From the NCBI RefSeq assembly GCF_028679455.1, contig NZ_JAJRBM010000005.1, forward strand, positions 1-14,558: DNA of 14,558 nucleotides, in the 5' to 3' direction. This DNA comes from Methanospirillum sp. Its GTDB lineage: Archaea > Halobacteriota > Methanomicrobia > Methanomicrobiales > Methanospirillaceae. The notes under the pieces were generated by a model. The model was not told the origin of the DNA and made no database searches. It saw only the letters and a program-made list of their open reading frames with translations. Position numbers and translations under genes: made by a program. Shown piece after piece: positions 595 to 14,558 of this stretch (position 1 is the first letter of the stretch; each line of letters begins with the position of its first letter).

Positions 595-607
595 TCTGTG
601 GTCTGGT

Positions 608-634: not shown

Positions 635-1069
635 CTCCTCTTCTTCTGGTGCAGGAGCCGGTGTGGGTGTTCCAACAGGGATTGGATCCGTGGTGAGAAG
701 TGAATACTCTACGGTCATGAAGTTGCCATCTATCTTCAGGTAGTATAAGCCTGTACCATGGATAAGGATCTTCTGGTTGGTGCTGGCCGGATAATGCCTG
801 TTGTACCCGCCGTCTGCGATGAGGTTCTCCCAGGGATCCCGGATCTCAATCGTTACCCACCCATAGGTTGGATCACTCACCTTTGGATGCACCGTGTAAT
901 CGATGATGAATGGTCCGTTCAGAACCTTCAGAATACGACCCTGCGGTGTCCCGTTCAACTCAATCCCCTGTTCTGAATACACGGCATGGGGGACAACCCG
1001 TGTCCCGGTTGTATTGGTATACCCGACTGATACTCGTGGTGACGGGTTGAAATTCGCGGTCCGGTCCAT
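632..1069 (-). CDS. Hypothetical secreted, probably N-glycosylated protein (C-terminal part, counted from the first ATG after an in-frame stop)
   Basis: 145-aa ORF with N-x-S/T sequons (NTT, NGT), a beta-rich composition and a PTPAPAPEEEE tail. The same frame stays open upstream to 1186 with no ATG/GTG/TTG, and continues beyond a TAA into the signal-peptide ORF at 1187-1291. Confidence 0.5.
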   Translation of the reverse strand: MDRTANFNPSPRVSVGYTNTTGTRVVPHAVYSEQGIELNGTPQGRILKVLNGPFIIDYTVHPKVSDPTYGWVTIEIRDPWENLIADGGYNRHYPASTNQKILIHGTGLYYLKIDGNFMTVEYSLLTTDPIPVGTPTPAPAPEEEE

Positions 1070-1291
1070 TGGGTACCTGGTGACCGAAGAGGTGGGAACC
1101 GGGGTAGGGGTCGCGGTTGGCAGGACGAGTTCGGTGATATTTTCTATCGACTCGGTTGTGATGTCTGACAGCGATGTATTGTTTAATTATAAGGATTCTG
1201 CTGCCTGGGTCATACCCACGGTGATTGCGATGAACTGAACCAGTATCAGGAAGATAACGATGACTGAACTGAGTGGTGTTTGTATACGCAT
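632..1291 (-). pseudogene. Secreted glycoprotein gene interrupted by one in-frame TAA (at 1187-1189); alternatively a sequencing error or two separate ORFs
   Basis: The ATG at 1291 encodes MRIQTPLSSVIVIFLILVQFIAITVGMTQAAESL, a charged N-terminus with a hydrophobic core that reads as a signal peptide, followed by TAA. After the stop the same frame continues LNNTSLSDITTESIENITELVLPTATPTPVPTSSVTRYP-MDRT… with sequons and a PT linker. 1291-1069 = 222, so the two ATGs are in phase. Confidence 0.45.
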
Positions 1292-1299
1292 GATGCTTA

Positions 1300-1884
1300 T
1301 CATGACTGGTAGATTCTGATCTCTTTCATTATTTCTTCGGTAAATTGTTCAATGCTTACCAATCCAAGTTCTCTGACCACCGGCCTGATAGGCCACCGTG
1401 TGGTTACCATCCCGACAAATTCCCGTCTGACCGTCCATACCATAGGGGGATGTGGTTGTTTCATCAGTATGTCAATAGATCCTCCCCAGACAGCACCCTG
1501 CACATCAAACCTCCCAACCTCATCAATTACGAGAATATCGGTTGTCTCTGGATTGAAATCAAGAATTGCCCGATTCCCGAATGACAGTCCTTCGGGTCTA
1601 AAAAAAAAGCGGGCGTGTTGTTCAGAGCCCACGTCAGGAGTTGTGGAACAGAGTTCTTCTGATATTCCGGTACCAAGATCCACCACTGAAAATCCTGACC
1701 TTGCCCCGTCTTTGAAATAACCGGGTGCCACAATCCCACGCATCCTCACTTCCTCTGTCCGAAGGCGATCCAGCATCTCCATTAGGAATGTAGTCTTGCC
1801 CTCTGCCTGTTCTCCTGATATAATATACACGGGTGGTTGCCGGGATGCAGGTATGCTGATATCGTTGTTCCTGGTATCAATCAT
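1300..1884 (-). CDS. P-loop NTPase of the THEP1/NTPase_1 family
   Basis: 194 aa. Walker A is 'ISGEQAEGKTTF' and Walker B 'ILVIDEVGRFD', comparable to 'IIDEIGKME' in THEP1, and the size is typical of archaeal NTPase_1 proteins. It ends 8 nt before the ATG at 1291, so it probably forms an operon with the secreted-protein gene. Confidence 0.7.
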   Translation of the reverse strand: MIDTRNNDISIPASRQPPVYIISGEQAEGKTTFLMEMLDRLRTEEVRMRGIVAPGYFKDGARSGFSVVDLGTGISEELCSTTPDVGSEQHARFFFRPEGLSFGNRAILDFNPETTDILVIDEVGRFDVQGAVWGGSIDILMKQPHPPMVWTVRREFVGMVTTRWPIRPVVRELGLVSIEQFTEEIMKEIRIYQS

Positions 1885-2080
1885 GGTTTCACGTTCTATT
1901 AGTATTTGATTGGTCTTGAGAAGATTAGTAAACCATTTCTATTTACTCGCATCAAATCAATAACGGATCTTTATTATTTTCGTACGAGTAACTACATAAG
2001 TATACGCATTCAGGTGCCGTATTTGCATCATGTAAAAAATGGAATAAACCTGAACAAGGATACCAACGGAACAAACAACG

Positions 2081-3781
2081 ATGATATGTAATTATTGTGA
2101 ACGGACCTGTGATATCGCGGAAGGGATCTCCGGGTACTGCAGGATGTACCGGAGCGAAGCGGGAGCCATTATTGAGAACTACCCAGATGCCTTTCTCAAC
2201 ATATACCCGGTCTCAAGCGAATCCATTCCGATGCTCCATTTCTATCCGAATAGTATCTTTCTGCTCGTCAGTACCATCGGGTGTAATTTTGCCTGTGATG
2301 GATGCATATCAGAGTTCCAGACCACCAGGCCGGGAACGCTGGAGAAAGTTCTGACCCCGCACACTCCTGATGAGATCCTTGCCATCGCCAGAGAAAGTTC
2401 CTGCAGGGGAATTACCTTCTGTCTCAATGAGCCCACGGTCTCACTCCCTACTTTCATCAGGCTGGCAACCGCTGCAAAAAACGAAGGATTTCTTGTCGGG
2501 TGTTCGAGTAACGGGTACATGACCGAAGATACGATACGGCAGATAATTCCGTTCCTTGATTTTATCAACATCGGGCTGAAAGGGAGTTCTGATGAACGGT
2601 ACCGGGAATGCGGAGTAGTATCCGGAGATCCGGTCTTTCGGAACCTGAAGATCCTGCACGATGCCGGCGTATTTATTGAGGTCTCTATCATGTACCTCTT
2701 TGGGAGAGAAGACGAGATTTATGGGGCTGTTGACCGCATCCGGAATATATCCCAAACGATCCCGATTCAGGTAATGCGGTTCATCGCAACACATGAGGAA
2801 CTCAATGCGTTTCAACCAACTAAAGAGCAGGCCGAGGCGATGTGTAAAACCCTGCAAAAGACTCTCGATCATGTATACCTCTTTAATACTCCGGCAACAA
2901 GCGAACTAGACTCGCGGTGTCCGGTTTGTGGGGAGACGATTGTACACCGGGTCTTTTTTGGCCCGATGGCAGCCCGGGTACTATCCTGCAGATCTGACGG
3001 AGTATGCAACTGCGGATACCGCTATCCTCACCAGGGAGATATCGTCCCGGTTCCAATTGAAGATACCCAGGTTCTTGGTGGGTACCGGTCGATCATGGGT
3101 GCCAAATTTATCGCCTCATTTCTCAACGTACTCGGCATCACCGACGAATCAGAGATTGACCAACTCTGTAACACGGTGATCATCAACGGGTACCTCCGGT
3201 ATCTGCAGGATCAACAGGATTCTCTTGAAACATTCACCTCAATGACCCGGTATCTTGCAGATCTCTCAGGGAGGCATGAGGTGGGTGAACGTCTTATCGG
3301 GTATGCTATGCAGGTGGCAACCGAAATTGCAGAACAGGTGCAAAACGCAGAAAAACCACGGGTATGCGGGGTCTTCTGTCACCCGCTCTCTCCCATGTAT
3401 GCCACCAAGTTTGGCAATACACTTGTAGAGATGACCGGCGGATTAAGCCTGAACAAGCAGGAGAATTTCAGAGAGAGTTCTCATGCTGAGTACACCGTTG
3501 AGGAGTTTAACCGGCTAAATCCTGATATGATCCTCATCTCCGGTCATTTTGCACCGTCTATCGATGATTTTCTCACCACCTGCCGTGATTTAGGCATTTC
3601 GTGCCGGGCGATATCAGAGAAGAAGGTGTATGTCATGGATAGCGAGTATTCTTCAGGGAACCTTGGCTGGCTGATCAGTCTGATGGACGTAGCCAACATT
3701 ATGCATCCTGAATTATTCAGTTATTCCCTTGAGAAAGAGAAGGCCCGGCTTGAAACGTTCATCGCTACCGTATCAGCTTGA
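2081..3781 (+). CDS. Radical SAM enzyme of the PflA/AmrS-like activase subfamily, fused to a C-terminal class III periplasmic-binding-protein-like (FecB/BtuF-type) domain
   Basis: 566 aa. The N-terminal Cys-rich segment CNYCERTC…GYC and the 'HFYPNS…STIGCNFACDGC' CxxxCxxC motif (nt 2282-2305) are typical of PflA/AmrS-type radical SAM enzymes. 'LNEPT' sits where GGEP is expected. A Cys cluster CPVC…C…CNC lies at nt 2918-3013. The C-terminal ~250 aa carry 'PDMILISGHFAPS' and 'KVYVMDSEY…WLISLMDVANIMHPELF', reminiscent of Peripla_BP_2 proteins. The stop overlaps the next start (TGATG, 3779-3783). Confidence 0.8.
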   Translation: MICNYCERTCDIAEGISGYCRMYRSEAGAIIENYPDAFLNIYPVSSESIPMLHFYPNSIFLLVSTIGCNFACDGCISEFQTTRPGTLEKVLTPHTPDEILAIARESSCRGITFCLNEPTVSLPTFIRLATAAKNEGFLVGCSSNGYMTEDTIRQIIPFLDFINIGLKGSSDERYRECGVVSGDPVFRNLKILHDAGVFIEVSIMYLFGREDEIYGAVDRIRNISQTIPIQVMRFIATHEELNAFQPTKEQAEAMCKTLQKTLDHVYLFNTPATSELDSRCPVCGETIVHRVFFGPMAARVLSCRSDGVCNCGYRYPHQGDIVPVPIEDTQVLGGYRSIMGAKFIASFLNVLGITDESEIDQLCNTVIINGYLRYLQDQQDSLETFTSMTRYLADLSGRHEVGERLIGYAMQVATEIAEQVQNAEKPRVCGVFCHPLSPMYATKFGNTLVEMTGGLSLNKQENFRESSHAEYTVEEFNRLNPDMILISGHFAPSIDDFLTTCRDLGISCRAISEKKVYVMDSEYSSGNLGWLISLMDVANIMHPELFSYSLEKEKARLETFIATVSA

Positions 3782-4563
3782 TGAGAATTATGTGTTCCTT
3801 ACATCATACTTCAAAAACTGATCCAGATTTTGATCTTGAATCTGTCTTTGATGCAGATGACTACCTTTACTTTTATGGGGAAGGGCTGAAGGACGAGTAT
3901 ACCGATGAAGAGGTTTCATTCCTTATCAGGGAATTCTGCCTTGATGCACCGAAACAGGTTCTTGACCTTGCCTGTGGACATGGGAGACATGCAAACAGGC
4001 TTGCAGGGTTTGGGTATACGGTTACGGGTGTTGACCAGAGCCGCGATTTTATCGCAATTGCCAGGAGTGATGCAGAGAAAAGAGGAGTCAGTGTCCGGTA
4101 TCTCTGCGGTGATGTGCGAAAGTTTTCAGACCCTGTGGCATATGACGGTGTCATTCATCTGTTCAGTTCCTTTGGATATTTTTCAGATGAGGAGAACGAG
4201 CTGGTGATCAGAAACGTTTCACTGTCACTACGGAAAAACGGAGTGTTTTGTCTTGATATCCTGAATCGTGATGCCTTTTTGAAAAATTATCCTCGTTGCT
4301 CGGTACGGGAGAAGAATACAGATCTGATGATCGACCGGAACCGGTTCGATCCGGTATCGGGGAGATTGTATAACTCACGCATCGTTATCAGAGATGGGAA
4401 GCGAAAAGATACCCCGTTCTTTCTCAGACTCTATAATCCGAATGAGATCCTTAGGATCCTTACCGCAGAAGGACTGGTTGTCACAAAGATCTTCGGAGAC
4501 TGGAAGGGTAATACGTTTGATGAGAATTCAAGGCGGATGATTCTTGTTGCCAGAAAAGAATGA
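3781..4563 (+). CDS. Class I SAM-dependent methyltransferase
   Basis: 260 aa. Motif I 'VLDLACGHGRHA', an acidic residue ending beta2 ('VTGVDQS'), motif II 'CGDVRKF' and 'DGVIHLFSSFGYF'. It is translationally coupled to the upstream radical SAM gene. TTG at 3778 and ATG at 3790 are also possible starts. Confidence 0.85.
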   Translation: MRIMCSLHHTSKTDPDFDLESVFDADDYLYFYGEGLKDEYTDEEVSFLIREFCLDAPKQVLDLACGHGRHANRLAGFGYTVTGVDQSRDFIAIARSDAEKRGVSVRYLCGDVRKFSDPVAYDGVIHLFSSFGYFSDEENELVIRNVSLSLRKNGVFCLDILNRDAFLKNYPRCSVREKNTDLMIDRNRFDPVSGRLYNSRIVIRDGKRKDTPFFLRLYNPNEILRILTAEGLVVTKIFGDWKGNTFDENSRRMILVARKE

Positions 4564-4582
4564 GTGACAGTCAGGAACCAGG

Positions 4583-4603
4583 GTGATGATATCATGTCAT
4601 CAC
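4583..4603 (+). terminator. Hairpin GTGATGA-tatcatg-TCATCAC about 20 nt after the methyltransferase stop
   Basis: Perfect 7-bp inverted repeat, read directly from the sequence. It could contribute to 3' end formation together with the T-tract at 4670-4676. Confidence 0.3.
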
Positions 4604-4669
4604 GGTTTCAAGAGAAGAAGGTACCTGAAATGATAGTATTATTGGAATAATCCTGAGTAACCTATGGTC

Positions 4670-4676
4670 TTTTTTT
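4670..4676 (+). terminator. Oligo-T tract (T7), archaeal-type intrinsic terminator for the radical SAM/methyltransferase transcript
   Basis: 'ggtctttttttcacc' lies about 107 nt downstream of the stop at 4563. Archaeal RNA polymerase terminates at T-runs. Confidence 0.45.
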
Positions 4677-4705
4677 CACCCTACATAAATCGCTAAACTT
4701 AAATC

Positions 4706-4720
4706 TTTATTTAGTATATA
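4706..4720 (+). promoter_or_regulatory. Candidate TATA box (CTTTATTTAGTATATA) for the SPFH gene
   Basis: A/T-rich TATA-like element about 50-60 nt upstream of the ATG at 4769. The RBS-like 'AAGGGATGA' at 4755-4764 precedes the start. Confidence 0.35.
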
Positions 4721-4731
4721 GTGCTTTGCCA

Positions 4732-4747
4732 TATCTCATACATGAGA
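4732..4747. promoter_or_regulatory. Perfect inverted repeat ATCTCAT-AC-ATGAGAT between the putative TATA box and the SPFH start; candidate operator
   Basis: 7-bp arms with a 2-nt spacer, read directly. It sits where an archaeal TSS or repressor site would be expected. Confidence 0.3.
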
Positions 4748-4768
4748 TTATCTAAAAAGGGATGAATA

Positions 4769-6589
4769 ATGGATTTTTTAGTTCGATTGTTGTTAGTCAT
4801 ACTCGGAATACTAGTAATCTGGGTGTTATTGAAAGGACTGATCCTGATTCATGCGAATGAAGTAGGTATTGTAACCAAGTGTATGTTTGGGAAAAAATTA
4901 CCGCAGGGCAAAATTATCGCAACCAAAGGAGAGATTGGTGTTCAAGCGGACATTCTCATGCCTGGGTTATATTACTATATACCCATTATCTGGAGAGTAA
5001 AGCGGGAAAAAGTCATTGAAATCAGGCCGGATAATGTTGGCATTGTCTCTGCGATTGAAGGATTACCCATCCCATCCGGTCGATTGCTTGGTGATGAAGT
5101 GCAAAGCAACTCGTTTCAGGATGCTCGGATGTTTCTTGAAAATGGCGGGTGTAAAGGGCCACAAATAGCAATCCTGAAGCCGGGAACATACCGCGTAAAT
5201 ACCCATATCTTCACGGTATTGGAAAAACCCATTACAGCGGTCCAACAGGGGAAAGTAGGGATTGTGAATGCTCTTGATGGTATCCCGCTTCCTTCCAGGT
5301 TTGCAATTGCTCCGGCTCCGCTCGGAGATCACAGCCATTTCCAGAATGGACAGGTATTTATCCAGAGCAATGGATATAGGGGTACCCAACTTGAGACCCT
5401 GCAACCCGGGGATTACTATATAAACCCACTTCTATTCGATGTTGTCCCAGTGGCCATGACCGTTGTCCCACCAGGAAATGTTGCCGTTATTACCTCAAGC
5501 GTTGGAGAAGAACTTGAAAAATCTCCAGATACTGCTCCTGCTTTAGTAACACCATCCAATTTGAATCAGCCGATTCATGAGAATGCAGAACATCTCCTGA
5601 TTACAGATAAAACCAAAAGAGGTATCCTCCGCAATCCCATTGCGCCAGGGCAATACAATCTGAATACAGCAGCATATCGGAGTGATATTGTACCGACGAG
5701 TGCGGTGACCATTGACTGGGCAAGTCCTGAAGGGGCGAAAGAAACCCTGCAGTTTACCCAGAAAAACAAGGGTGAGAGCGTCTCGGTTGCAGAGTTCTTT
5801 AAATTCGGACAGTTACGCGTCACATCCCAGGATGGATTTCAACTTGAAGTCGATGTCAGACTGATTGTCCGGATTCCTGCGGATAATGCACCATTTGTAA
5901 TCGCACGGTTCGGAAGTGTATACAATCTGATTGAACAGGTAGCCCACCCACTGATCGATGCTTCATTTAGGAACGAGGCAGGAAATCAACTAGCACTGCA
6001 GTTTGTTCATGATAGGACAAAACTTCAACAGACGGCATTCGAAAGGGCACAGGAAGAGTTTAAAAAGTATCAGGTTGAGGTTCAGGGACTATTAATCGCG
6101 TATATTAAAGTGGATGAAACCCTTCTGCAGACCCAGACCCTCAAAGAGATCGCAGTCCAGCAACAGCAGCAGTACCAACAGGAGGCTAAAGCGCAAGAGG
6201 AGAGGATCGCGGTTGCTGAAAAGACAGCTCGTGCCGATATGCAGGGACAGGTTATCGCAGCAAAGTTGTCTATTGATATCAACAAGGATAATGCACAGGC
6301 TGCACGTGAATCCGCATACGGTACCCGTGATGCAACCAAAGCGAATGCTGAAGGAGCCGCATATGCAAATGAACAGGTTGGTATCGGGACCGCGAAAGCA
6401 TACATCGCACAGAAAGAAGCCCTAGGTCCTGAAAATGTGGCGATGTTGCAGGCAATCCAGAAGATTGCAGATGGGAAGATCCTTATCACCCCGAATATTC
6501 TGGTAACCGGTGAGGGTTCTCAGGGAGGTAGTCTCCTTACTGCATACTTCGCTTCGTTGCTTGAACAAACAAAACAGAAAACTCAATAA
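4769..6589 (+). CDS. SPFH/band-7 (flotillin-like) membrane protein with four tandem N-terminal repeat modules
   Basis: 606 aa. N-terminal transmembrane helix (LLLVILGILVIWVLL), the 'LIHANEVGIV' SPFH entry motif, an SPFH core around residues 320-450, and a Q/E/A-rich coiled-coil tail (QQQQQYQQEAKAQEER…) typical of flotillin/YqiK-like proteins. Four ~70-aa repeats share 'VGIV…G.PLP.G…PG.Y..N' motifs. Confidence 0.85.
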   Translation: MDFLVRLLLVILGILVIWVLLKGLILIHANEVGIVTKCMFGKKLPQGKIIATKGEIGVQADILMPGLYYYIPIIWRVKREKVIEIRPDNVGIVSAIEGLPIPSGRLLGDEVQSNSFQDARMFLENGGCKGPQIAILKPGTYRVNTHIFTVLEKPITAVQQGKVGIVNALDGIPLPSRFAIAPAPLGDHSHFQNGQVFIQSNGYRGTQLETLQPGDYYINPLLFDVVPVAMTVVPPGNVAVITSSVGEELEKSPDTAPALVTPSNLNQPIHENAEHLLITDKTKRGILRNPIAPGQYNLNTAAYRSDIVPTSAVTIDWASPEGAKETLQFTQKNKGESVSVAEFFKFGQLRVTSQDGFQLEVDVRLIVRIPADNAPFVIARFGSVYNLIEQVAHPLIDASFRNEAGNQLALQFVHDRTKLQQTAFERAQEEFKKYQVEVQGLLIAYIKVDETLLQTQTLKEIAVQQQQQYQQEAKAQEERIAVAEKTARADMQGQVIAAKLSIDINKDNAQAARESAYGTRDATKANAEGAAYANEQVGIGTAKAYIAQKEALGPENVAMLQAIQKIADGKILITPNILVTGEGSQGGSLLTAYFASLLEQTKQKTQ

Positions 6590-6648
6590 TCATAAAATAT
6601 CTCAAAAATGTCATTTTCAAAACCTGAATATTAACCGGGAAATATGGA

Positions 6649-6972
6649 ATGAAAAAATCGGGAAGGATACTTCGTTGCCCGGTATGCAATGGCCGGATGG
6701 AATATAAAGCGATCGATTACTGGTGTGACAGACCAAAAAATGTCTGCTCACGGTGTGGGTATGATGGTTCGTTTGCCTTTGAATGGGATAATGATGATCT
6801 TATGGAGGATTATCGGCCAAAGAACGGTAAACAACGAAAGAAAAGGGCAGTATCGATTGAAGATGATAAACTTCGCTCCATTACCCGATTTTATGCAATA
6901 CTCTACATCATTACATTCATTATTTTATGCGGGCTGGCTATCATAGGATTCATCAAGATGAATGTCATGTAA
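6649..6972 (+). CDS. Tail-anchored zinc-ribbon protein (CPVC…CSRC) with a C-terminal transmembrane helix
   Basis: 107 aa. Cys pairs at residues 10/13 and 33/36, a K/R-rich linker, and a C-terminal hydrophobic helix 'FYAILYIITFIILCGLAIIGFI'. It lies 59 nt downstream of the SPFH gene on the same strand with similar A/T-rich composition. Confidence 0.55.
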   Translation: MKKSGRILRCPVCNGRMEYKAIDYWCDRPKNVCSRCGYDGSFAFEWDNDDLMEDYRPKNGKQRKKRAVSIEDDKLRSITRFYAILYIITFIILCGLAIIGFIKMNVM

Positions 6973-6990
6973 GGAATATTATCCTTATCC

Positions 6991-7857
6991 TTACAGGAAT
7001 TCGCTCGTTCCCACATTGTATTTTCTCTGATGTTTTCGAAGAGCAGTCTCCATATCAGGTGCATTCATCACGTCAAACTCAAATTTTTCAGGGTCACTGA
7101 TGGCAACCGACATAACAATGTTGATCCCGTTCTCGAAGAGCACATCAGGGATCAACTGGGCACTGGATCCATAGAGTGCCCGAATCCGGGCATTTTTAGC
7201 ATACCTGACTACCTCTTCAAATGTTCCGTTCACGAGGGTTGAACCGGTGATGATGGCGACATCAGCATCGACAAGTACCTCGCGGTTCTCATCAGCCGGG
7301 TGAACGGTGATTCCTGCCGGGCCATGGGTGATCGTCTCACCGACAATGGTGGTTCTGAATACCTCCGGAGGCCGCTGGTCAGTGACATGGAGTTCCCGGC
7401 ACCGGCCTGCATAACTCTTGATGAGGCCGCCATATCCCACAATAACCAGGTTATCATCACTCCTGACCAGGTCTTTTACTTCAACCCCTGTAGTAAATCC
7501 TTTATCCTGCAGGACTTCATCGGTTACCAGCGGCTGTGAGAGGGCGTTGAGTGCGGTCAAACCGATAGAACGCTGACTGATCGAAGGTTTTGCAATGGTT
7601 TCCCTGGCAACCTCAACGAGTGGTCTGCCGATGCAGGTCTGGAGATATATGAAATCAAGACCGGTCTGGTCAGCGCCGTACCGGGGGTTGTTGTCCTGAA
7701 AACTCATCGCTACCCCGCAGCAGCCGTTCGTTCCGATGACTGCGTTCCATCCCGGATTAAGACCGAATTTCCTGACTCTTCCTTCAGGGAGATCCAGTCG
7801 CTGGTATTCCTGAATGATTTTTTGATATCCTTTCTCAAGGATGGTTTTAGAGTTCAT
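6991..7857 (-). CDS. DUF364/DUF4213-type protein (putative heavy-metal chelation, Rossmann-like domain)
   Basis: 288 aa. 'VIVGYGGLIKSYAGRCRELHVTDQRP' is a glycine-rich Rossmann segment typical of DUF364, with an N-terminal DUF4213-like part. It is transcribed divergently from modA; such proteins are often linked to Mo/W or other metal uptake loci. Confidence 0.65.
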   Translation of the reverse strand: MNSKTILEKGYQKIIQEYQRLDLPEGRVRKFGLNPGWNAVIGTNGCCGVAMSFQDNNPRYGADQTGLDFIYLQTCIGRPLVEVARETIAKPSISQRSIGLTALNALSQPLVTDEVLQDKGFTTGVEVKDLVRSDDNLVIVGYGGLIKSYAGRCRELHVTDQRPPEVFRTTIVGETITHGPAGITVHPADENREVLVDADVAIITGSTLVNGTFEEVVRYAKNARIRALYGSSAQLIPDVLFENGINIVMSVAISDPEKFEFDVMNAPDMETALRKHQRKYNVGTSEFL

Positions 7858-7944
7858 ATTTCTGTTCTTATCCTAATGATTTATTTGATGTGATCATAAA
7901 GACGTACACTTTAGCTTCACTTTATGATAGGGACTCATAGTTTA

Positions 7945-7956
7945 TTAATCGATTAA
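7945..7956. promoter_or_regulatory. Perfect 12-bp palindrome TTAATCGATTAA in the divergent DUF364/modA promoter region
   Basis: Read directly. It lies about 90 nt upstream of the DUF364 start and about 115 nt upstream of modA. Candidate regulator binding site. Confidence 0.25.
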
Positions 7957-8071
7957 ATATATTGTAGTAATCTCTTTTAATTTACCTTAGTATTAATAGT
8001 GTATAGTTCTTTTTACAGTTCGGTTTTTCTCCTTCGATATCATATACGCTATTGACTGTTAGGTGAATTTC

Positions 8072-8878
8072 ATGAAAAAGATTATTACGTACAGTATTAT
8101 TGGACTTTTCATGGTCCTGCTGATTGCACAGATCGGCTGTGTATCAGGGGCAGAAACGAATGCATCTGAAATTACTATCTTTGCAGCAGCATCGCTGACC
8201 GGTGCTATCGGAGATCTTACTCCTATCTTTGAGGCTGCTCACCCAGGGGTAAAGGTTACCTCAAACCTTGATAGTTCAGCAACGCTGGAAACCCAGATCA
8301 AAGAAGGAGCACATGCAGATCTCTTCCTTCCGGCCAGCGACAAGAACCTGAACAACCTGGTAAAAGAGAAGATGATTGATAATTCAAGCATCACTCCGTA
8401 TGCAACCAACAAACTTGCACTCATTGTCCCCGCAGACAACCCGGCAGGTATCACTGGTCTTGCAGATCTGAGCAAAGATGGCGTGAAGATCGTCAGTGAG
8501 ACCTCTGAAGTCCCGGTCAGGAAATACACCGACCAGATGCTGAACAAGACCGTCAATGATACTGCATACGGACAGGCATTTGTTGATGGATTCAAGAAGA
8601 ACATCATCTCAGAAGAGACCAATGTTGCCGGAGCAACCACCAAGGTCTCACTGGGAGAAGCAGATGCAGGAATCACCTATTACTCTGATGTGACCAAGGA
8701 CCTTGCAGACAAGGTAAAGATCATCGAGATTCCGGAAAAACTCAATGTCGTAGCCTCATACAAGGCTGGAATTATTACCGATGCAGAGCATGCCGATATG
8801 GCAAAGGAGTTTGTCACCCTGCTCACCTCTGATGAAGGAAAGACTGTACTGAAAGACTATAAGTTCAGCCCGGTTTGA
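8072..8878 (+). CDS. modA: Molybdate/tungstate ABC transporter substrate-binding protein (ModA type)
   Basis: The 'ITIFAAASLTGA' motif is diagnostic of ModA-family binding proteins. There is a signal peptide with a possible lipobox (IAQIGC), and the RBS AGGTGA (8061-8066) precedes ATG 8072. The GTG at 8063 in the ORF track is a less likely start. Confidence 0.9.
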   Translation: MKKIITYSIIGLFMVLLIAQIGCVSGAETNASEITIFAAASLTGAIGDLTPIFEAAHPGVKVTSNLDSSATLETQIKEGAHADLFLPASDKNLNNLVKEKMIDNSSITPYATNKLALIVPADNPAGITGLADLSKDGVKIVSETSEVPVRKYTDQMLNKTVNDTAYGQAFVDGFKKNIISEETNVAGATTKVSLGEADAGITYYSDVTKDLADKVKIIEIPEKLNVVASYKAGIITDAEHADMAKEFVTLLTSDEGKTVLKDYKFSPV

Positions 8879-8962
8879 ACGTAGATACGAATGGCCGGAA
8901 TCACCAGAATGAGGGGCATACCCTCCTTCTGTTTCCTGCCTGATTACGGTCTGATGATACCT

Positions 8963-8968
8963 TTTTTC
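8963..8968 (+). terminator. Oligo-T tract (T6) downstream of modA, preceded by the GAGGG-gcata-CCCTC hairpin (8912-8926)
   Basis: 'gataccttttttctg'. A second T6 tract sits at 9043-9048. Confidence 0.4.
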
Positions 8969-9202
8969 TGAATTGATGTCAGTTTCGGATAATTATGGTA
9001 TAGCATTCTCAGCCTGTATCATTTCTAAAAGAGATTCAACCCTTTTTTGTCACGAATGACCTGAAAATGGACTTAATCTTCCTTCAGTCTATTTATATGT
9101 GCTGTTAACACCCAGTGTCGATACCTATGTCAATGCATATGCGCGAGAATACTGCTTTATTAAGAAATAACAATAGATATGATTGGCATACTTGGGATAT
9201 AT

Positions 9203-9210
9203 TTATATTG
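9203..9210 (+). promoter_or_regulatory. TATA box TTTATATT for the mop gene, with a strong RBS AAGGAGG at 9249-9255
   Basis: The TATA element is 54 nt upstream of ATG 9264. The RBS is followed by an 8-nt spacer before the ATG. Confidence 0.4.
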
Positions 9211-9263
9211 ATATATGTCTAGTATCCTGTGCCGCGATCTGTGGCAATAAGGAGGAACTAACA

Positions 9264-9473
9264 ATGAAAATCAGTGCACGTAATGCCTTGAAAGGAACCA
9301 TAAAATCTATTACCAAAGGTCCGGTTAACGCAGAAGTCGTCATAGACATCGGTAATGGTGTCCTTGTCACTGCAATGATCACTGCCCACGCAGTAGAAAA
9401 CCTTGCTTTAAAAGAAGGAAAGGCTGCCTACGCAGTAGTGAAGGCAAGCGAAGTAATGGTTGCAGTTGATTAA
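9264..9473 (+). CDS. mop: Stand-alone TOBE (Mop) domain molybdate/tungstate-binding protein
   Basis: 69 aa: 'MKISARNALKGTIKSITKGPVNAEVVIDIGNGVLVTAMITAHAVENLALKEGKAAYAVVKASEVMVA'. It shows the canonical 'SARN.l.G.V' TOBE start, and ATG 9264 has a strong RBS. The 96-aa ORF from 9183 is an artefactual 5' extension. Confidence 0.85.
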   Translation: MKISARNALKGTIKSITKGPVNAEVVIDIGNGVLVTAMITAHAVENLALKEGKAAYAVVKASEVMVAVD

Positions 9474-9519
9474 TCACATTGATCATACAAACCATTTAGA
9501 TTCACTATTCGTCTCTCTC

Positions 9520-9525
9520 TTTTTT
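9520..9525 (+). terminator. T-rich tract (tctctctcttttttat) downstream of mop
   Basis: T6 preceded by a CT repeat, 47 nt after the mop stop. Confidence 0.35.
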
Positions 9526-9618
9526 ATAGTGGTAGCTATACAATAGGCGTATCTACTTTGTTTTACACGTTCGCCTCATATCATGAGTCGTATGGATCAT
9601 ATCATATCAGATACATCC

Positions 9619-9630
9619 GGTTATATAACC
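9619..9630. promoter_or_regulatory. Perfect 12-bp palindrome GGTTATATAACC containing a consensus TATA box (TTATATAA); candidate modBC promoter
   Basis: Read directly. It lies about 82 nt upstream of the modB ATG at 9711. Confidence 0.35.
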
Positions 9631-9710
9631 AATAAAAGCAAACGAGTCACGGTCAGAGAATTGTTCCCAGACGAATCAGATACACATGGTTTGCGGGAGT
9701 TATCCGGATC

Positions 9711-10523
9711 ATGAAATCAGGAAGCATATATTCTGGAATAAGAAATAAACAGATTTCAAAAATATTATTGGGCCTGGTAGTACTCATCACGATACTCTTC
9801 TTCACGCTTCCCCTGCTCTCACTCCTTCTGCGTATAACTCCGGATGAGTTCATCGCTGCAATCCTGAAACCTGAGGTTCAAAGTGCCATATATCTGTCAC
9901 TGCTCACCGCAGCTGCATCAACCGTGGTTATCGTCCTGATTGGAACGCCGCTTGCGTACCTGAATGCACGGGTTTCCTATCGTGGCAGGGACTTCGTTGA
10001 AACCCTCTTAGATCTCCCGATAGTTCTCCCCCCGTCAGTAGCCGGACTTGCGCTGCTGGTTCTGTTTGGAAGACGTGGTCTTATCGGTGCATACCTGAAC
10101 GATGTAGGAATCGCAATCATCTTCACCACCTTTGCGGTGGTACTTGCCCAGGTCTTTGTTGCCGGGCCGTTGTATATCAGACAGGCAAAAACTGCCTTTG
10201 CGATGGTGGATCAGGTTTATGAATCAGCATCACGAACGCTTGGGGCTTCCCCGCTGATCACCTTCGTGAAAGTGACCATTCCGCTTGCCTGGACTGGTCT
10301 CGTTTCAGGAGTAATATTAGCATTTGCCCGGGCTATCGGAGAGTTTGGAGCAACGATTATGGTGGCGGGAAATCTGCCAGGAAAAACTCAGACCATGCCA
10401 CTTGCAATCTATGGATTGATGCAGAGTGATCTTACTGCATCAATAGCCCTTTCTCTGGTCCTTATCAGTATCTCCTGCATTATTCTGATTACGATACGGT
10501 TGCTTGCCGGGAGGTCTGCCTGA
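9711..10523 (+). CDS. modB: Molybdate/tungstate ABC transporter permease
   Basis: 270 aa, polytopic. The ABC permease EAA-like loop 'ESASRTLGASPLITFVKVTIPLA' is present. The stop overlaps the modC start (TGATG at 10521-10525). Confidence 0.9.
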   Translation: MKSGSIYSGIRNKQISKILLGLVVLITILFFTLPLLSLLLRITPDEFIAAILKPEVQSAIYLSLLTAAASTVVIVLIGTPLAYLNARVSYRGRDFVETLLDLPIVLPPSVAGLALLVLFGRRGLIGAYLNDVGIAIIFTTFAVVLAQVFVAGPLYIRQAKTAFAMVDQVYESASRTLGASPLITFVKVTIPLAWTGLVSGVILAFARAIGEFGATIMVAGNLPGKTQTMPLAIYGLMQSDLTASIALSLVLISISCIILITIRLLAGRSA

Positions 10524-11275
10524 TGCTTACTGCACGAATAGAAAAACAGCTCCGGGATTACCCGTTGATGATCGATCTCACGGTAAACCGTGGGGAAGTA
10601 CTGGTTCTTCTCGGTACAAACGGGTCCGGGAAATCAACGGTGCTCAATCTTCTCGCCGGACTCCTGACACCTGATAAGGGAGAGATCTCGCTCAATGGGA
10701 TACCGATATTCAGGAGTGAGGAGGGGATATCCTGCCCGCCTGAAGAGCGGAATATAGGATATGTCTTTCAGGATTATGCTCTCTTTCCTCATATGACCGT
10801 GTTTGATAATATTGCCTATGGTCTGAAGATGCGAAAGGTTCCCAAAGAAATAATAGAGAATCAGATACAGGCAACTCTACACGATCTTGGTATCTCCCAT
10901 GTTCGAAATGAACGGGTGACCAACCTTTCCGGAGGACAACGGCAGCGGGTGGCTCTTGCGAGAGCCCTTATTATCCAGCCGCATCTGTTACTCCTGGATG
11001 AACCTCTCACGGCTCTTGATCCTCAGGCCAGGGATAAGATCAGAATCGAACTCCGAGAGCAACTGATTACCAGCAATCAGCCATCAATTCTGGTCACGCA
11101 CTCCATAAAAGATGCCCAGATCATTGGAGATAAGGTAATAATGCTGGAAAAAGGATCCGTTATCTGGACCGGGAGACCTGAGGAACTTGAATCCGGAAGC
11201 GGGGTTCCTGACCTGGAACCTCTCAAGTGTGAGTGCGACGAGTACCGGGATTTTGGAGCGATTGCGATAGACTGA
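10523..11275 (+). CDS. modC: Molybdate/tungstate ABC transporter ATP-binding protein lacking the C-terminal TOBE domain
   Basis: Walker A 'GTNGSGKST', ABC signature 'LSGGQRQRVALARAL', Walker B 'LLLLDEP' and the H-loop 'LVTHS'. At 250 aa it has no room for the C-terminal TOBE domain found in ~350-aa ModC proteins. Confidence 0.9.
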   Translation: MLTARIEKQLRDYPLMIDLTVNRGEVLVLLGTNGSGKSTVLNLLAGLLTPDKGEISLNGIPIFRSEEGISCPPEERNIGYVFQDYALFPHMTVFDNIAYGLKMRKVPKEIIENQIQATLHDLGISHVRNERVTNLSGGQRQRVALARALIIQPHLLLLDEPLTALDPQARDKIRIELREQLITSNQPSILVTHSIKDAQIIGDKVIMLEKGSVIWTGRPEELESGSGVPDLEPLKCECDEYRDFGAIAID

Positions 11276-11323
11276 TTCGGTTGATTCCCTGGTATCATCG
11301 GTCTGATTTTGGGCTGAAAATGT

Positions 11324-11336
11324 TAAAAAGGGAAAA
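11324..11336 (-). terminator. Two T5 tracts on the minus strand (A5…A5 on plus) just after the DUF4013 stop
   Basis: Plus-strand 'gttaaaaagggaaaaagagg'; the minus strand reads CTCTTTTTCCCTTTTTAAC, 8 nt after the stop. Confidence 0.35.
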
Positions 11337-11344
11337 AGAGGGGT

Positions 11345-12010
11345 TCAGTCTGCTGCATCGTAGATGAGCGAGTAGTACCTTCCTCCCACGATTGAAAGGT
11401 ACGGGGCTACAATCAGAGATAATAGCCAGCCGATCACCGGGATTACGTTCAGAATAATCTGGATAACCATCATTACCACACAAAGGACAATGATGGCGAG
11501 GATATACGTTACCCATCCGATGGATCCGATTTTTGCGAAAATTTCACTGAATTCGAATGCAGATCCCATACTTCCAGAGCGTGCAAACCTCATGATTCCA
11601 ATAATCTCAAAGAGACCGAATATGAAGGCCAGGATGAAGAAAGCCAGGAATGAGATGCCCACCGTTCCAATAAGGAGTCCGATGTATGCACCTGGATCCC
11701 CGACATCCATTCCTAGCATGGTCAAGGCTCCGAGCCCTCCGCTCATCACAAAAATGATAAGTCCGATAATACAGGGGATGATCATATAGACGATGCCGAT
11801 GATAAGCATCTTGATTCCGTCGATGAACATTCCTCCGTAATTATCAGTTTCCGGGGCAGGGGTGATTCCTTTCATTACCCGGAGCGTGTAACCCATGATC
11901 AATGGGAAAATGATGGTTCCGATGATCAGGACGATCCATCTTCCCCACTTCCCGACTAATCCTTCCGTTGCATACCCGAAGGACTCCTTAATACTTGCAA
12001 TTATGTCCAT
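11345..12010 (-). CDS. DUF4013-family integral membrane protein
   Basis: 221 aa from ATG 12010, which is preceded by GGTGGAATC. 'GYTLRVMKGITPAPETDNYGGMFIDGIKMLIIGIVYMIIP' matches my recollection of the DUF4013 core, with 5-6 transmembrane helices. The ATG at 12049 in the ORF track adds 13 aa and is less likely. Confidence 0.65.
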   Translation of the reverse strand: MDIIASIKESFGYATEGLVGKWGRWIVLIIGTIIFPLIMGYTLRVMKGITPAPETDNYGGMFIDGIKMLIIGIVYMIIPCIIGLIIFVMSGGLGALTMLGMDVGDPGAYIGLLIGTVGISFLAFFILAFIFGLFEIIGIMRFARSGSMGSAFEFSEIFAKIGSIGWVTYILAIIVLCVVMMVIQIILNVIPVIGWLLSLIVAPYLSIVGGRYYSLIYDAAD

Positions 12011-12332
12011 GATTCCACCATGATGATATTGGATGCATTGGCTATTCATAGGTAATATACTTATTTATTGCATCGCCGGCTCGCCTGCTGCAATCCGGAA
12101 TGATATTCGCCAGATTGGTTGTGATAACTCGGTTTAGACATTTTGGTTGAATTAGTATTACTCTGGTTGTGTTGCCTAATTATCACTCGGGCCGGATATT
12201 TCATACCCCTGAATATGGTGATAGCGATCCTCGCATGTCATTGTGAGGTGTATACGTTCGTGAAAGACATGTTGGGGATATCACAAAAACACCCGAATAT
12301 TGTGAGTTTTTTAACCTCTTCCTTCCTGTTAA

Positions 12333-12340
12333 TTTATAAT
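12333..12340 (+). promoter_or_regulatory. Consensus-like TATA box TTTATAAT, 32 nt upstream of ATG 12372 (leaderless arrangement)
   Basis: Read directly. The spacing fits a transcription start at or just before the ATG at 12372. Confidence 0.35.
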
Positions 12341-12371
12341 AATGTATTTATTGTCACCTTATAGACATATT

Positions 12372-12569
12372 ATGATGAGTTTTGAGCATTTCTCCGAAGG
12401 AAACCAGTATGAAGTACTGGTAAAATCAAGTGAGTACTTCCAATTGAAAAAGAAGTTAGCAAAGGGTATCTACCAGACCATTATACGCTACGTTGATGGA
12501 AAACTCCGTACCTGTGTTGTAGTTGGTCTTTCAAACAATCTGAAGGTCCTGGTCATAGCAATTAATTAA
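12372..12569 (+). CDS. Candidate small protein (65 aa, unknown function) in an A/T-rich 560-bp gap
   Basis: The ORF MMSFEHFSEGNQYEVLVKSSEYFQLKKKLAKGIYQTIIRYVDGKLRTCVVVGLSNNLKVLVIAIN is bracketed by a TATA box (12333-12340) and a T7 tract (12597-12603). I recognise no homology, so the call rests on signals only. Confidence 0.3.
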   Translation: MMSFEHFSEGNQYEVLVKSSEYFQLKKKLAKGIYQTIIRYVDGKLRTCVVVGLSNNLKVLVIAIN

Positions 12570-12596
12570 CTCTGATTTCATCAGACTATTATCTCC

Positions 12597-12603
12597 TTTT
12601 TTT
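12597..12603 (+). terminator. Oligo-T tract (T7) on the plus strand after the small ORF, preceded by the TGATTTCATCA mini-palindrome
   Basis: 'tatctcctttttttagc'. The orientation fits a plus-strand transcript, not the minus-strand permease. Confidence 0.35.
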
Positions 12604-12613
12604 AGCTTCCCTG

Positions 12614-14317
12614 TTAATGATCCATATGGATTTTCAATACTGACTGGCCATTGAGGGATGATGAACTTACGTTGTCTGCATGTTTTCTGATAAGAAATCC
12701 TCCAAGCCCGGTCATCATAGAGGGGTCATTGAGGATCTCCTCTTCACCTGGTGGTTTTTCTGGTAAGGGGAGGAGTTCTCCGGCATAGGACACCTGAGCA
12801 TCCAGATTATACTCATCGAATGAGAGCGATATCTTCACCGGACCGGAAGAAAGCAGGTGATACACAATCAGTTCTGCTCCCTCGGTCAACGCGGTTGCCA
12901 TCCGGGTGATAACCTCTTTTCTCGCAGCCCAGGCTTCACCCTGTCTCTCCATTAGGGTGAAGATCTGGTCATAGATACTGCCTTCTGGATCGATGGTGAT
13001 TGTGACTTTTTCCCTGATCCCGATCCGCATCACCAGATTGAGAATTATGGCGATAATCGTTGCAAGTGAGAGCGCTGAATCAAATATCGGTTTTATGAGT
13101 GTGGGAACGCCAGAATAGGCATTTGGGATGAGATAAACACTGATTCCGAAGATAAAGGAAATTCCGATCACTAATATCTTCCGGGAATCGAGCATCCGGG
13201 AAGTGATCGTCTGGATACCTCCGACGACAATAAAGCCGGCAACATAAATAATCGTCCCCCCGATTACCGGACCTGGCATGATAAGGAAAATTGTGGCGAG
13301 AATGGGTAGAAAGGCGAGAGTGATGAGAATTCCGCCGGTAACAAATCCGATGTACCGGCTGGTCGCACGGGTGGCTATTGAGAGGCCGATATTTGAAGAA
13401 GAACCCGTCTGGCCCATTCCCCCTACAAGACCTCCAATGCACGATGCAACGCCATCTGCAAAGAGGCCTGACCTGATATTCATCATATCCGGTCGTTTCC
13501 ATTCTGGGTTGTTGATTCGTTGACAGATCGAAAATTCACCGATACTTTTTACAAATGTAACAAGAGCAGCTATGGTAAATGGAATTATAAGTTCGGTTTT
13601 GAATGAAAGGCCGAAATAATTGATGTTGGGCAGCGCAACCAATGGTGAAGTTGCAATTTTGCCTAAGGGGTCATCACCGGCAATACCGAGACTAATGCAT
13701 AAGACATACCCCACCGCCATGCCGACGATAACAGGAAAGAGTTTCAGACTACCTTTCCCCCAGACGGTCACACTTACCGTAACCAGGAGGGTAATTATGG
13801 CGATAAGTGTTGCTAAAGGATTGGGAGTTGCGTTCACGCTACTCATGCCAAAAAAGTTGGGCAATGCATAGGGAATCACCGTCACTCCAAGCATCATGAT
13901 CACAAGGCCTGTCACTTCAACCGGGAAGAGAACACGAAGTTTATGGACTATCCGGGAGAGGACAGCCTGTAGTATCCCGGAGAATGCAGTCATCCCACAA
14001 AGAAGTGAAAGACCTCCGCCCTGAAGGGCTAATACGGAAGCAGAAACAAAATTCGGACCATTGACACGGGGAATGAGAAACCCGGATCCAAACTCCGGGT
14101 GTTTTATTGCCTGAAAAATGCATGCAATACCGTTTGAGAGCATGGACATTGAGACAAAAAAGGCTGCAGCACCGGCCTCAAGATTTGCAGTCCTGGCGAC
14201 AATGATGGGAAAGATGAATGCAGTGGCTACGATGCCCAGATGTTGCAGCCCAAGCAGGAACATCGTCGGAAATGGAGGTTTATCATCTGCGGCGTATTCA
14301 AGATTCGAAGGCTGCAT
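12614..14317 (-). CDS. NCS2-family nucleobase (xanthine/uracil-type) permease with a C-terminal ~135-aa RsbW-like GHKL (HATPase_c_2-like) domain
   Basis: 567 aa. 'FLLGLQHLG' is the TM1 signature. 'GQTGSSSNIGLSIATR' matches the QN.GL motif. 'MPGPVIGGTIIYVAGFIVVGG' matches the PROSITE NCS2 pattern. The C-terminal tail 'EGAELIVYHLL…VKISLSFDEYNLDAQVSYAGE…MTGLGGFLIRKHADNVS…GQSVLKIHMD' aligns by eye to RsbW/SpoIIAB N, G1 and G2 boxes. Confidence 0.85.
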   Translation of the reverse strand: MQPSNLEYAADDKPPFPTMFLLGLQHLGIVATAFIFPIIVARTANLEAGAAAFFVSMSMLSNGIACIFQAIKHPEFGSGFLIPRVNGPNFVSASVLALQGGGLSLLCGMTAFSGILQAVLSRIVHKLRVLFPVEVTGLVIMMLGVTVIPYALPNFFGMSSVNATPNPLATLIAIITLLVTVSVTVWGKGSLKLFPVIVGMAVGYVLCISLGIAGDDPLGKIATSPLVALPNINYFGLSFKTELIIPFTIAALVTFVKSIGEFSICQRINNPEWKRPDMMNIRSGLFADGVASCIGGLVGGMGQTGSSSNIGLSIATRATSRYIGFVTGGILITLAFLPILATIFLIMPGPVIGGTIIYVAGFIVVGGIQTITSRMLDSRKILVIGISFIFGISVYLIPNAYSGVPTLIKPIFDSALSLATIIAIILNLVMRIGIREKVTITIDPEGSIYDQIFTLMERQGEAWAARKEVITRMATALTEGAELIVYHLLSSGPVKISLSFDEYNLDAQVSYAGELLPLPEKPPGEEEILNDPSMMTGLGGFLIRKHADNVSSSSLNGQSVLKIHMDH

Positions 14318-14488
14318 ATCTTTTTATATGCCTACTTCCTCTATTAATCCAATTCCATTTGATAGTAGGCCATAAGGATATAGAATTTCGTATTCCCTCT
14401 TCCTGTTTCATCACTAAAAACGATGCAGGATGAAAGACCAGGGTCTTTATTTATGAGTAGGTATTCATCACCACATTCCAGAAATTTG

Positions 14489-14508
14489 TCATGAGGCCTT
14501 CCTCATGA
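14489..14508. promoter_or_regulatory. 20-bp palindromic element TCATGAGG-CCTT-CCTCATGA upstream of the permease
   Basis: Perfect 8-bp arms, read directly, about 170 nt upstream of the permease ATG at 14317 on the minus strand. Confidence 0.25.
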
Positions 14509-14558
14509 GGTGCACCAGATACCTGCAAAAATTATCTGAGCGATTAAAAATATTATTG

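Follow-up and report, generated by a model that had tools for sequence, protein, structure and literature searches.

In the SiaA/B/C/D, SypE/SypA, BtrU/V/W and HsbR/HsbA systems, a module of STAS protein, RsbW-type kinase and PP2C phosphatase acts on an output other than a sigma factor, and the STAS protein MlaB regulates an ABC transporter (MlaB-MlaF). Transporters of the SLC26/SulP group are elevator carriers built as a 7+7 inverted repeat with a cytoplasmic STAS domain directly past transmembrane helix (TM) 14, whereas we know of no regulatory cytoplasmic domain in the NCS2/SLC23 carriers, in which they differ from their fold relatives SLC26 (STAS) and SLC4. The window analyzed here, a stretch of 14,558 nucleotides from Methanospirillum sp. 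(contig NZ_JAJRBM010000005.1, positions 1 to 14,558), harbors a complete gene (12614..14317, minus strand; taken from the open reading frame list, with an ATG start) whose 567-residue product combines an NCS2-fold permease with a C-terminal RsbW-like domain. We propose, with a probability of about 0.5, that this tail acts as a pseudokinase receiver which tethers the permease to a STAS/RsbW/PP2C switch, the permease itself being the output of that switch; the transporter is, in other words, probably wired into a partner switch. Neither an NCS2-RsbW fusion nor a permease-linked partner switch was described in the titles and abstracts of the literature searched.

The tail has the fold and topology of the anti-sigma-factor serine kinases RsbW, SpoIIAB and UsfX (PF13581), the beta1-alpha1 element at the N terminus included, and retains both the N-box Glu and the aromatic of the G2 helix. 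Unlike these kinases, which stand alone, it forms the end of a protein with a 14-TM permease core. It possesses neither the Asn of the N box nor the Asp of G1, its G2 glycines are degenerate across the family, it has motifs of its own (W-[GA]-A-R, FDE[FY]NLD and, at the C terminus, H-x-[DE]-H), and its carriers include archaea, where there is no sigma factor for it to bind. With the SLC26/SulP transporters the protein shares the 7+7 inverted-repeat elevator architecture and the placement of a cytoplasmic C-terminal domain from the partner-switching toolkit directly past TM14; it differs in that the NCS2 fusion carries the kinase-like partner rather than the STAS partner, the latter being separately encoded, with a phosphorylatable Ser, in the tail-bearing family. 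None of the non-sigma partner switches listed above, MlaB-MlaF included, possesses a permease-pseudokinase architecture, and the presumed target would here be a secondary-active permease with a built-in pseudokinase receiver. Rv1364c of Mycobacterium tuberculosis (RsbU-RsbW-RsbV) is likewise different, being a soluble protein with kinase motifs in its RsbW domain and no transporter part.

The boundaries of the two parts of the protein were established from profile matches, from alignment to UraA and from a structural model, and all coordinates given for this gene refer to the minus strand. The membrane core (residues 1 to 430; 13028..14317) comprises 14 TM helices in the 7+7 inverted-repeat NCS2/SLC23 fold; it is matched by Pfam PF00860 (Xan_ur_permease) over residues 19 to 398 (E 3.9e-52, 177.7 bits against a cut-off of 27) and by NCBIfam NF037981 (NCS2_1; 78.1 bits against a cut-off of 40). 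The NCS2 models end at residues 426 to 432, while the alignment to UraA extends to about residue 445. In the full-length AlphaFold (AF2) model (predicted local distance difference test score [pLDDT] of 86.2 and predicted template modeling score [pTM] of 0.78), the last TM helix is formed by residues 415 to 430 and the first strand of the tail by residues 436 to 442, the two being joined by the five-residue linker RIGIR (residues 431 to 435; 13013..13027), and block pLDDT values at this junction range from 78 to 88. The tail, counted from the end of TM14, thus comprises 137 residues (431 to 567; 12617..13027) and is followed by the stop codon (12614..12616). The sequence-only reading, which had estimated about 135 extra residues past TM14 and placed them at 12614-13026, was accurate in its count and correct to within one base in its coordinates.

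The extension is a constant feature of the family. The 112 full-length homologues, from Archaea and Bacteria, are 549 to 596 residues long (mostly 567 to 571) and cover 97 to 100% of the query at 44 to 94% overall identity and 31 to 91% identity in the tail; in all 112, the tail aligns over 135 to 137 of its 137 residues. The possibility that the tail is a frameshift or read-through artefact is rejected on this basis, since the extension that the sequence-only reading had wished to see surveyed in other NCS2 proteins is found in close and distant orthologues alike.

The tail had been assigned by eye to the RsbW/SpoIIAB-like GHKL fold, and this assignment was borne out down to the level of the subgroup. 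Alone, the tail of the window protein matches PF13581 with an E value of 0.0013 over profile positions 21 to 119 of 127, its 19.2 bits falling below the Pfam cut-off of 27.4; 14 of 36 diverse family tails match the same model (E of 1 or less; best E 5.3e-7), a precomputed PF13581 match is present in only one (P0027) of the 120 homologues listed, and the best PDB sequence for the family profile is Bacillus subtilis RsbW (6m36), at only E 0.042. When the family tail was aligned by hhalign to 30 stand-alone RsbW-like kinases encoded by neighboring genes, a probability of 96.6% and an E value of 5e-10 were obtained over 128 columns. The sequence evidence for kinship with HATPase_c_2 is, therefore, weak for the single protein and solid at the family level. 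The AlphaFold model of the tail (pLDDT 91.7, pTM 0.84) displays the order strand, helix, helix, strand, strand, helix, helix, strand, strand, that is, an alpha/beta sandwich of the Bergerat type which begins with the beta1-alpha1 element of the RsbW subgroup, and the Foldseek result for this model is consistent with an RsbW/SpoIIAB-type fold. On the combined strength of the family alignment and the predicted structure, the tail is a divergent RsbW/SpoIIAB-type GHKL domain.

The motifs required for catalysis have been lost from this domain. Motif columns were counted over the 36 diverse tails and mapped through hhalign and hidden Markov model (HMM) alignments, which placed the by-eye matches of the sequence-only reading where it had put them, with 'TEGAELIVYH' on the N-box helix, 'SYAGE' at G1 and 'TGLGGF' at G2. 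In the N-box-like helix, KEVITRMATALTEGAELIVY (residues 467 to 486; 12860..12919), the Asn which serves as Mg2+ ligand is replaced by A, L, S, T, V or M in 36 of 36 tails, the window protein having Leu483. At the G1 box, where alignment to the 'ieDdG' of the neighboring kinases shows Tyr511-Ala-Gly513 (12779..12787) in place of Asp-x-Gly, the adenine-binding Asp is changed to Tyr in 34 of 36 tails (Tyr511 here); the Gly is kept in all 36, and Pro or Leu mostly takes the place of the second Gly. At the G2 position (TGLGGF, residues 536 to 541; 12695..12712, from the column counts), the family reads x-[RK]-L-[SGA]-G-[FY] against GGLG in active kinases, and the window's clade, with TGLGG, is G2-like. 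Because the ATP- and Mg-binding residues are lost, the tail is, as judged from its sequence, a catalytically dead pseudokinase and not an enzyme; the suggestion that the domain is non-catalytic, first made on account of the missing N-box Asn, is further supported by the loss of the G1 Asp and, at the family level, by a degenerate G2.

The opposite view, namely, that the tail retains serine kinase or ATPase activity and phosphorylates a STAS protein or the transporter itself, could draw on the GHKL fold and on the retention by the window's clade of the G2-like TGLGG and of the N-box Glu. It is confronted with the absence of the Mg-binding Asn in every tail counted, with the replacement of the adenine-binding Asp by Tyr and with a G2 box that is degenerate across the family; furthermore, linked operons encode a separate kinase with intact motifs, the stand-alone kinases next to family permeases retaining DE..N, D.G and GGLG. 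An active-kinase reading was accordingly rejected on the loss of catalytic motifs across the 36 tails and is considered highly improbable.

Several of the positions through which RsbW engages its STAS partner are, nonetheless, kept. In RsbW, the N-box Glu49 hydrogen-bonds the phosphorylatable Ser56 of RsbV, and the RsbV-contacting positions include Ser48 and Tyr118 (PMC7340262). The equivalent of Glu49 (Glu479) is Glu in 32 and Gln in 4 of the 36 tails, that of Tyr118 (residue 541) is Phe or Tyr in 35, and that of Ser48 is Thr, Asn or Ser in 30. The tail family is also marked by strongly conserved motifs of its own, comprising W-[GA]-A-R, FDE[FY]NLD, P-x-x-[RK]-P, A-D-x-V and the C-terminal H-x-[DE]-H, and the conserved residues are identical between tails which are linked to module genes and those which are not. 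In the window protein, conservation places FDEYNLD at residues 500 to 506 (12800..12820), in the beta2-beta3 hairpin, and HMDH at residues 564 to 567 (12617..12628). The FDE[FY]NLD hairpin is nearly invariant across the family, tail His134 and His137 are at least 90% conserved, and nearly every family member ends on the final His. Neither the FDE[FY]NLD hairpin nor the C-terminal H-x-[DE]-H has a counterpart in RsbW-type kinases, and the two may represent a metal, ligand or partner site.

The genes which surround tail-bearing permeases provide the principal argument for a partner switch. Loci from 78 GTDB species were surveyed, chosen solely by a tail motif (pattern [SR]FDE[FY]NLD, used together with a 14-sequence alignment), which biases the sample towards canonical tails and not towards any neighborhood. 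Open reading frames were called and searched with STAS, RsbW-kinase and PP2C profiles built from domain-limited neighbor seeds and checked against Pfam. At least one of these module genes was located no more than 500 bp from the permease gene in 39 of the 78 loci, and in 34 of the 57 outside the window's clade. Within 500 bp, 58 module-gene matches were on the same strand as the permease and 9 on the opposite one; by distance, 59 matches were situated within 500 bp, 12 at 0.5 to 1 kb and none beyond 8 kb. Among the loci with at least 4 kb of flanking sequence on both sides, 23 of 43 were linked, all three genes being present in 11 of them, and the most constant partner was STAS, which was found in 20 of the 23. 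In an unbiased clustering of neighbors, the module genes were the only widely recurrent ones.

Individual loci, with domains assigned by Pfam, illustrate the range of arrangements. A Methanothrix locus (L003) encodes, on one strand, a STAS protein, a SpoIIE-type PP2C with a 5TMR-LYT sensor, a 142-residue HATPase_c_2 protein and the permease, and a Methanoculleus locus (L089) has the order permease, STAS, PP2C and HATPase_c_2. In a metagenome-assembled genome (MAG) of Thermodesulfobacteriota (L006), a PP2C gene and the permease gene are followed by HATPase_c_2 and STAS genes on the other strand, while in an uncultured Methanospirillum (L088) a paralogue of 45% identity is divergent from STAS and PP2C genes. 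The linked PP2C proteins bear sensor domains (HAMP, PAS or 5TMR-LYT), and the STAS proteins neighboring family permeases retain the phospho-site motif Y-I-S-S-x-G.

Two further types of protein encoded next to tail-bearing permeases were observed in the survey. Directly upstream of the permease in L039 (2027-4156, plus strand) and L055 (235-2361, plus strand) is a gene for a protein of the 710-residue type; in the L039 copy, for which alone the Pfam composition was read, a nitrile-hydratase-alpha-like region is combined with STAS, a pyridoxal phosphate-dependent enzyme domain (PALP, E 1.5e-83) and ACT, and the 709-residue L055 copy has its STAS match at the same position. By its domain composition, the L039 protein would represent a fusion between STAS and a metabolic enzyme. 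The second type is a 775-residue protein of L083 (10481-12805, plus strand) which joins HAMP, a SpoIIE-type PP2C and a motif-bearing HATPase_c_2 domain (Pfam, L083 copy only). Similar open reading frames adjoin the permease in L040, L042 and L083 (70 to 120 bp downstream); the equivalent in L029 lies approximately 1.7 kb from the nearer permease copy, and the copies of L029 and L040 are matched by the tail HMM as well.

Linked loci were further examined by partial Mantel tests (2000 permutations each), in which the tail and the membrane core were each compared with the neighboring proteins while the other part was controlled for. The tail correlated with STAS (partial r = 0.41) and with the kinase (partial r = 0.51), values reached by 0 of 2000 permutations in either case, whereas the core did not (partial r = -0.16 with STAS, reached by 1958 of 2000; partial r = -0.08 with the kinase, reached by 1529 of 2000). 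Between the tail and PP2C, no significant correlation was obtained (partial r = 0.10, reached by 315 of 2000). It is thus the tail, rather than the membrane core, which appears to co-vary with the neighboring STAS protein and kinase, a result which is suggestive of contact without being proof of it.

The direction in which such a system would signal may be read in two ways. The tail could report rather than receive, the permease sensing its substrate and signaling through the tail to the module, either in the manner of RsbT or by sequestering the STAS protein or the kinase according to transport state, so that the transporter would be a sensor and not a target. RsbT, an RsbW paralogue which activates the PP2C phosphatase RsbU and binds both STAS proteins and a PP2C, provides a precedent for such a role of an RsbW-type domain, the linked gene in the window's clade is usually a PP2C gene, and the linkage data fit a sensor as well as they fit a target. 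We nevertheless regard a sensing transporter as unlikely: the PP2C proteins have sensor domains of their own, and an input is, therefore, already present, the tail does not co-vary with PP2C, and no alternative output gene recurs in the operons. Among the annotated neighbor clusters there was, indeed, no sigma factor and no other recurrent candidate output. Because archaea, to our knowledge, have no sigma factors and because no other candidate output recurs among these clusters, it is the permease that is proposed to be the output.

As a model for the operation of the switch, in which we infer the binding partner, the direction of signaling and the effect on transport, the following sequence of events is proposed. 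The permease is an elevator-type carrier of the NCS2/SLC23 fold, whose TM14 runs through five residues into the cytoplasmic RsbW-like domain. An unphosphorylated STAS protein, the RsbW-like kinase or both would bind the tail, and the retained N-box Glu, which in RsbW touches the STAS phospho-serine, would serve in docking. Once bound, the partner would affect transport by way of the rigid connection between the tail and the gate domain; the shortness of the five-residue linker makes direct mechanical coupling to that domain possible. Phosphorylation of the STAS protein by the genuine kinase would bring about its release, and the sensor-bearing PP2C phosphatase, with its HAMP, PAS or 5TMR-LYT domains, would constitute the input and reset the STAS protein. 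The outcome would be a "transporter plus STAS" assembly resembling SLC26, formed reversibly and in trans, in which the two tails of a permease dimer would probably pair through beta1 and alpha1 in the manner of RsbW dimers. In its most complete form, this model envisages a previously unrecognized class of SLC23-fold permeases, in which an RsbW-like pseudokinase receives a phospho-regulated STAS protein and the complete module switches transport on and off post-translationally, a proposal which we advance tentatively and rate at somewhat less than even odds.

A number of observations weigh against a partner-switching role, in particular, for the gene of the window. No STAS or PP2C gene was detected by profile search in the 14.5-kb window, in which the sole kinase-profile match is the permease's own tail, and no module gene lies within 10 kb of the Methanospirillum lacunae orthologue (94% identity) or of a 92%-identical copy in a MAG. 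The link to STAS and partner switching raised by the sequence-only reading consequently holds for the 39 loci in which module genes adjoin the permease, but not for the window or its two closest orthologue loci. About half of all surveyed loci are unlinked, and in the clade of the window linkage is confined to 5 of 21 loci, in most of which a PP2C gene is the sole partner (the PP2C-linked loci being L017, L019, L020 and L025). A STAS homology search covering M. lacunae and other Methanospirillum returned four close matches only and was uninformative. Of the positions known from the kinases, the equivalent of RsbW Asp42 is changed to Arg, Lys or Gln in the tails, that of Lys44 is mostly a small or aliphatic residue (Ala, Thr, Ile, Ser or Gly), and that of SpoIIAB Arg20/RsbW Arg23 is, by hhalign, Gln in the window protein and unconserved in the family consensus. 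Lastly, mirror-tree correlations can stem from shared rate or composition effects.

These observations leave room for an explanation in which no partner-switching protein is involved, at least in the solitary Methanospirillum/Methanoregula clade, and the tail only dimerizes beneath the gate domains through beta1 and alpha1, thereby stabilizing or gating the transporter dimer; a small ligand or metal would possibly be bound at FDE[FY]NLD, Y-x-G and H-x-[DE]-H. The RsbW homodimer interface is itself formed by beta1 and alpha1 (PMC7340262). The strand EKVTITI (residues 436 to 442; 12992..13012), placed by secondary structure and hhalign, is equivalent to beta1 of RsbW, and by analogy dimerization of the tails may be envisaged; the five-residue linker would position this strand just beneath the membrane. 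An autonomous domain would also accommodate the lack of module genes around the window gene and its closest orthologues, the unlinked half of the loci and the fact that conservation is strongest on family-specific residues rather than on the classic RsbV-contact ones. It leaves unexplained, however, the tight and mostly same-strand linkage in 39 of 78 loci and the tail-specific co-variation with STAS and kinase, and the conservation of the same residues in linked and unlinked tails argues for a shared function. We consider this explanation rather unlikely. Since linked and unlinked tails conserve the same residues, a single molecular function is assumed for all of them under the partner-switching proposal, and for the solitary gene of the window's orthologue group it is assumed that the partner, if any, is encoded elsewhere in the genome.

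As regards the transported substrate, the protein had been described as an NCS2 nucleobase permease, of which the family assignment stands (177.7 bits for PF00860) and the nucleobase specificity does not. The best PDB sequence matches of the permease are UraA, UapA and SVCT1 (UraA 8omz/3qe7, E 1e-18), and with these carriers and XanQ it has in common the fold of the core and the greater part of the TM10 signature (N-x-G-x4-T-[GR]), differing from them in the 137 extra C-terminal residues, in a Lys in TM8 and in the residue at the position of UraA His245. The essential Glu241 in TM8 of UraA corresponds, by alignment, to Lys257 (13547..13549), and Lys occupies this position in 113 of 113 family sequences; that of UraA His245 is Asp or Glu, again in all 113. 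The TM10 signature region, SSSNIGLSIATR (residues 306 to 317; 13367..13402), was located by alignment to UraA and by the NAT motif (PMC5972032), which in this permease reads G-S-S-S-N-I-G-L-S-I-A-T-R (x-S-S-S-N-I-G extended), with Ser at position 2 in 113 of 113 sequences and at position 4 (Ser308, the first specificity residue) in 108 of 113. The NAT signature of nucleobase carriers is [TS]-[FY]-[AS]-[QEP]-N-x-G-x4-T-[GRK], and that of ascorbate carriers is S-S-S-P-N (PMC5972032). Three features specific to nucleobase carriers are, thus, missing, namely, an aromatic residue at position 2, Gln, Glu or Pro at position 4 and the TM8 Glu; ascorbate carriers are the closest at positions 2 to 4, with S-S-P against S-S-S here, i.e., Ser for Pro.

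Scores against the more specific NCBIfam models are likewise low, amounting to 252.6 against a cut-off of 414 for the pbuX xanthine-permease subfamily (TIGR03173), 82.6 against 477 for the uracil-permease equivalog (NF007995) and 45.9 against 759 for the RutG equivalog (TIGR03616). Because of the TM8 Lys, the S-S-S-N motif and these scores below the subfamily and equivalog cut-offs, the label "nucleobase permease" is unsafe. Source annotations name members of the family "xanthine permease" or "solute carrier family 23 protein", and, going by the motif residues, the names "xanthine permease" and "uracil-xanthine permease" are probably wrong on substrate for the tail-bearing family. Clustering of neighbor genes provided no metabolic clue to the substrate, as it returned periplasmic binding proteins in at most 11 loci, a metallo-beta-lactamase and TctC.

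The fusion is widespread. Among 1.84 billion cluster representatives, searched exhaustively by profile, there were 889 clusters at E<=0.001 and 547 (at 50% identity) at E<=1e-10, and in nearly all of the 150 best clusters the match ends at the C terminus of a protein of about 570 residues or of a fragment of one. A word-indexed homology search with the tail only returned five fragments, the family being recovered by the whole-protein and the exhaustive profile searches. When one genome for each GTDB species was scanned, 349 matching stretches could be confirmed. Archaeal carriers belong to the Methanomicrobiales, Methanothrix and Methanophagales, while the bacterial ones are spread over many phyla and include Burkholderiales (with cultured Variovorax), Sporomusa silvacetica (two copies), Deltaproteobacteria, Binatia, Rokubacteria, Vicinamibacteria, Nitrospirae, Bacillota, Dehalococcoidales, Aminicenantes and Alphaproteobacteria.

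Variants of the architecture were encountered among these sequences. A 205-residue protein (P0002, on four contigs) joins the first 60 or so permease residues directly to the end of TM14 and the tail; nearly all of the membrane core is thus deleted internally, and a membrane-anchored tail is left. Two tail-bearing permease open reading frames are present in 10 of the 78 species loci (L029, L034, L035, L036, L039, L052, L054, L057, L070 and L076), mostly as adjacent tandem copies, those of L052 and L057 being approximately 5 to 6 kb apart; the second open reading frames of L036 (76 residues) and L057 (236 residues) are fragments. Heterodimers of paired permeases are conceivable.

In the window itself, the permease gene is accompanied by genes for a DUF4013 membrane protein and a molybdate/tungstate-type ABC transporter, and its upstream context is covered only as far as the end of the window at base 14558. 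The window gene and its orthologues in L001 and L086/L087, 92 to 94% identical, are found in three unrelated neighborhoods of Methanospirillum-type genomes, with an IS66 transposase and a toxin-antitoxin pair in the vicinity of the L086 copy, and the genome regions which harbor the gene are accordingly variable. Between the stop codon of the permease gene and the DUF4013 gene is a 564-bp AT-rich gap (12050-12613; GC content 0.38 against 0.46 for the window), which contains no Rfam match and no open reading frame of at least 100 codons, and an Rfam scan of the entire window was equally without a match. Elsewhere in the window, a 566-residue radical-SAM protein (2081-3781, plus strand; radical-SAM residues 63 to 212) has a C-terminal region weakly resembling Peripla_BP_2 (E 4.9e-4), and the end of its gene is overlapped by a methyltransferase gene (3778-4563). 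An SPFH/Band-7 protein (4769-6589, plus strand) is unusually long, at 606 residues, its Band_7 match covering only residues 307 to 476.

What is new in these data is the presence of module genes within 500 bp of tail-bearing permeases in half of the surveyed loci, together with a co-variation with STAS and kinase that is specific to the tail. For annotation, the consequence is that substrate names are probably mistaken for this family, represented by 547 clusters in the profile search at E<=1e-10. The tail-bearing family would give SLC23/NCS2 carriers a dedicated cytoplasmic regulatory domain, and, since that domain stems from the same signaling toolkit as STAS, partner switching and elevator carriers of the 7+7-TM type may be deeply connected. 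The permease is a concrete candidate output for STAS/RsbW/PP2C modules without a nearby sigma factor, as found in archaea and many bacteria, and cultured carriers exist in Variovorax spp., S. silvacetica, Methanoculleus and Methanospirillum. If the proposal is true, these permeases would represent a trans-assembled counterpart of the SLC26-STAS transporters and, among archaea, the first partner switch whose output is defined.

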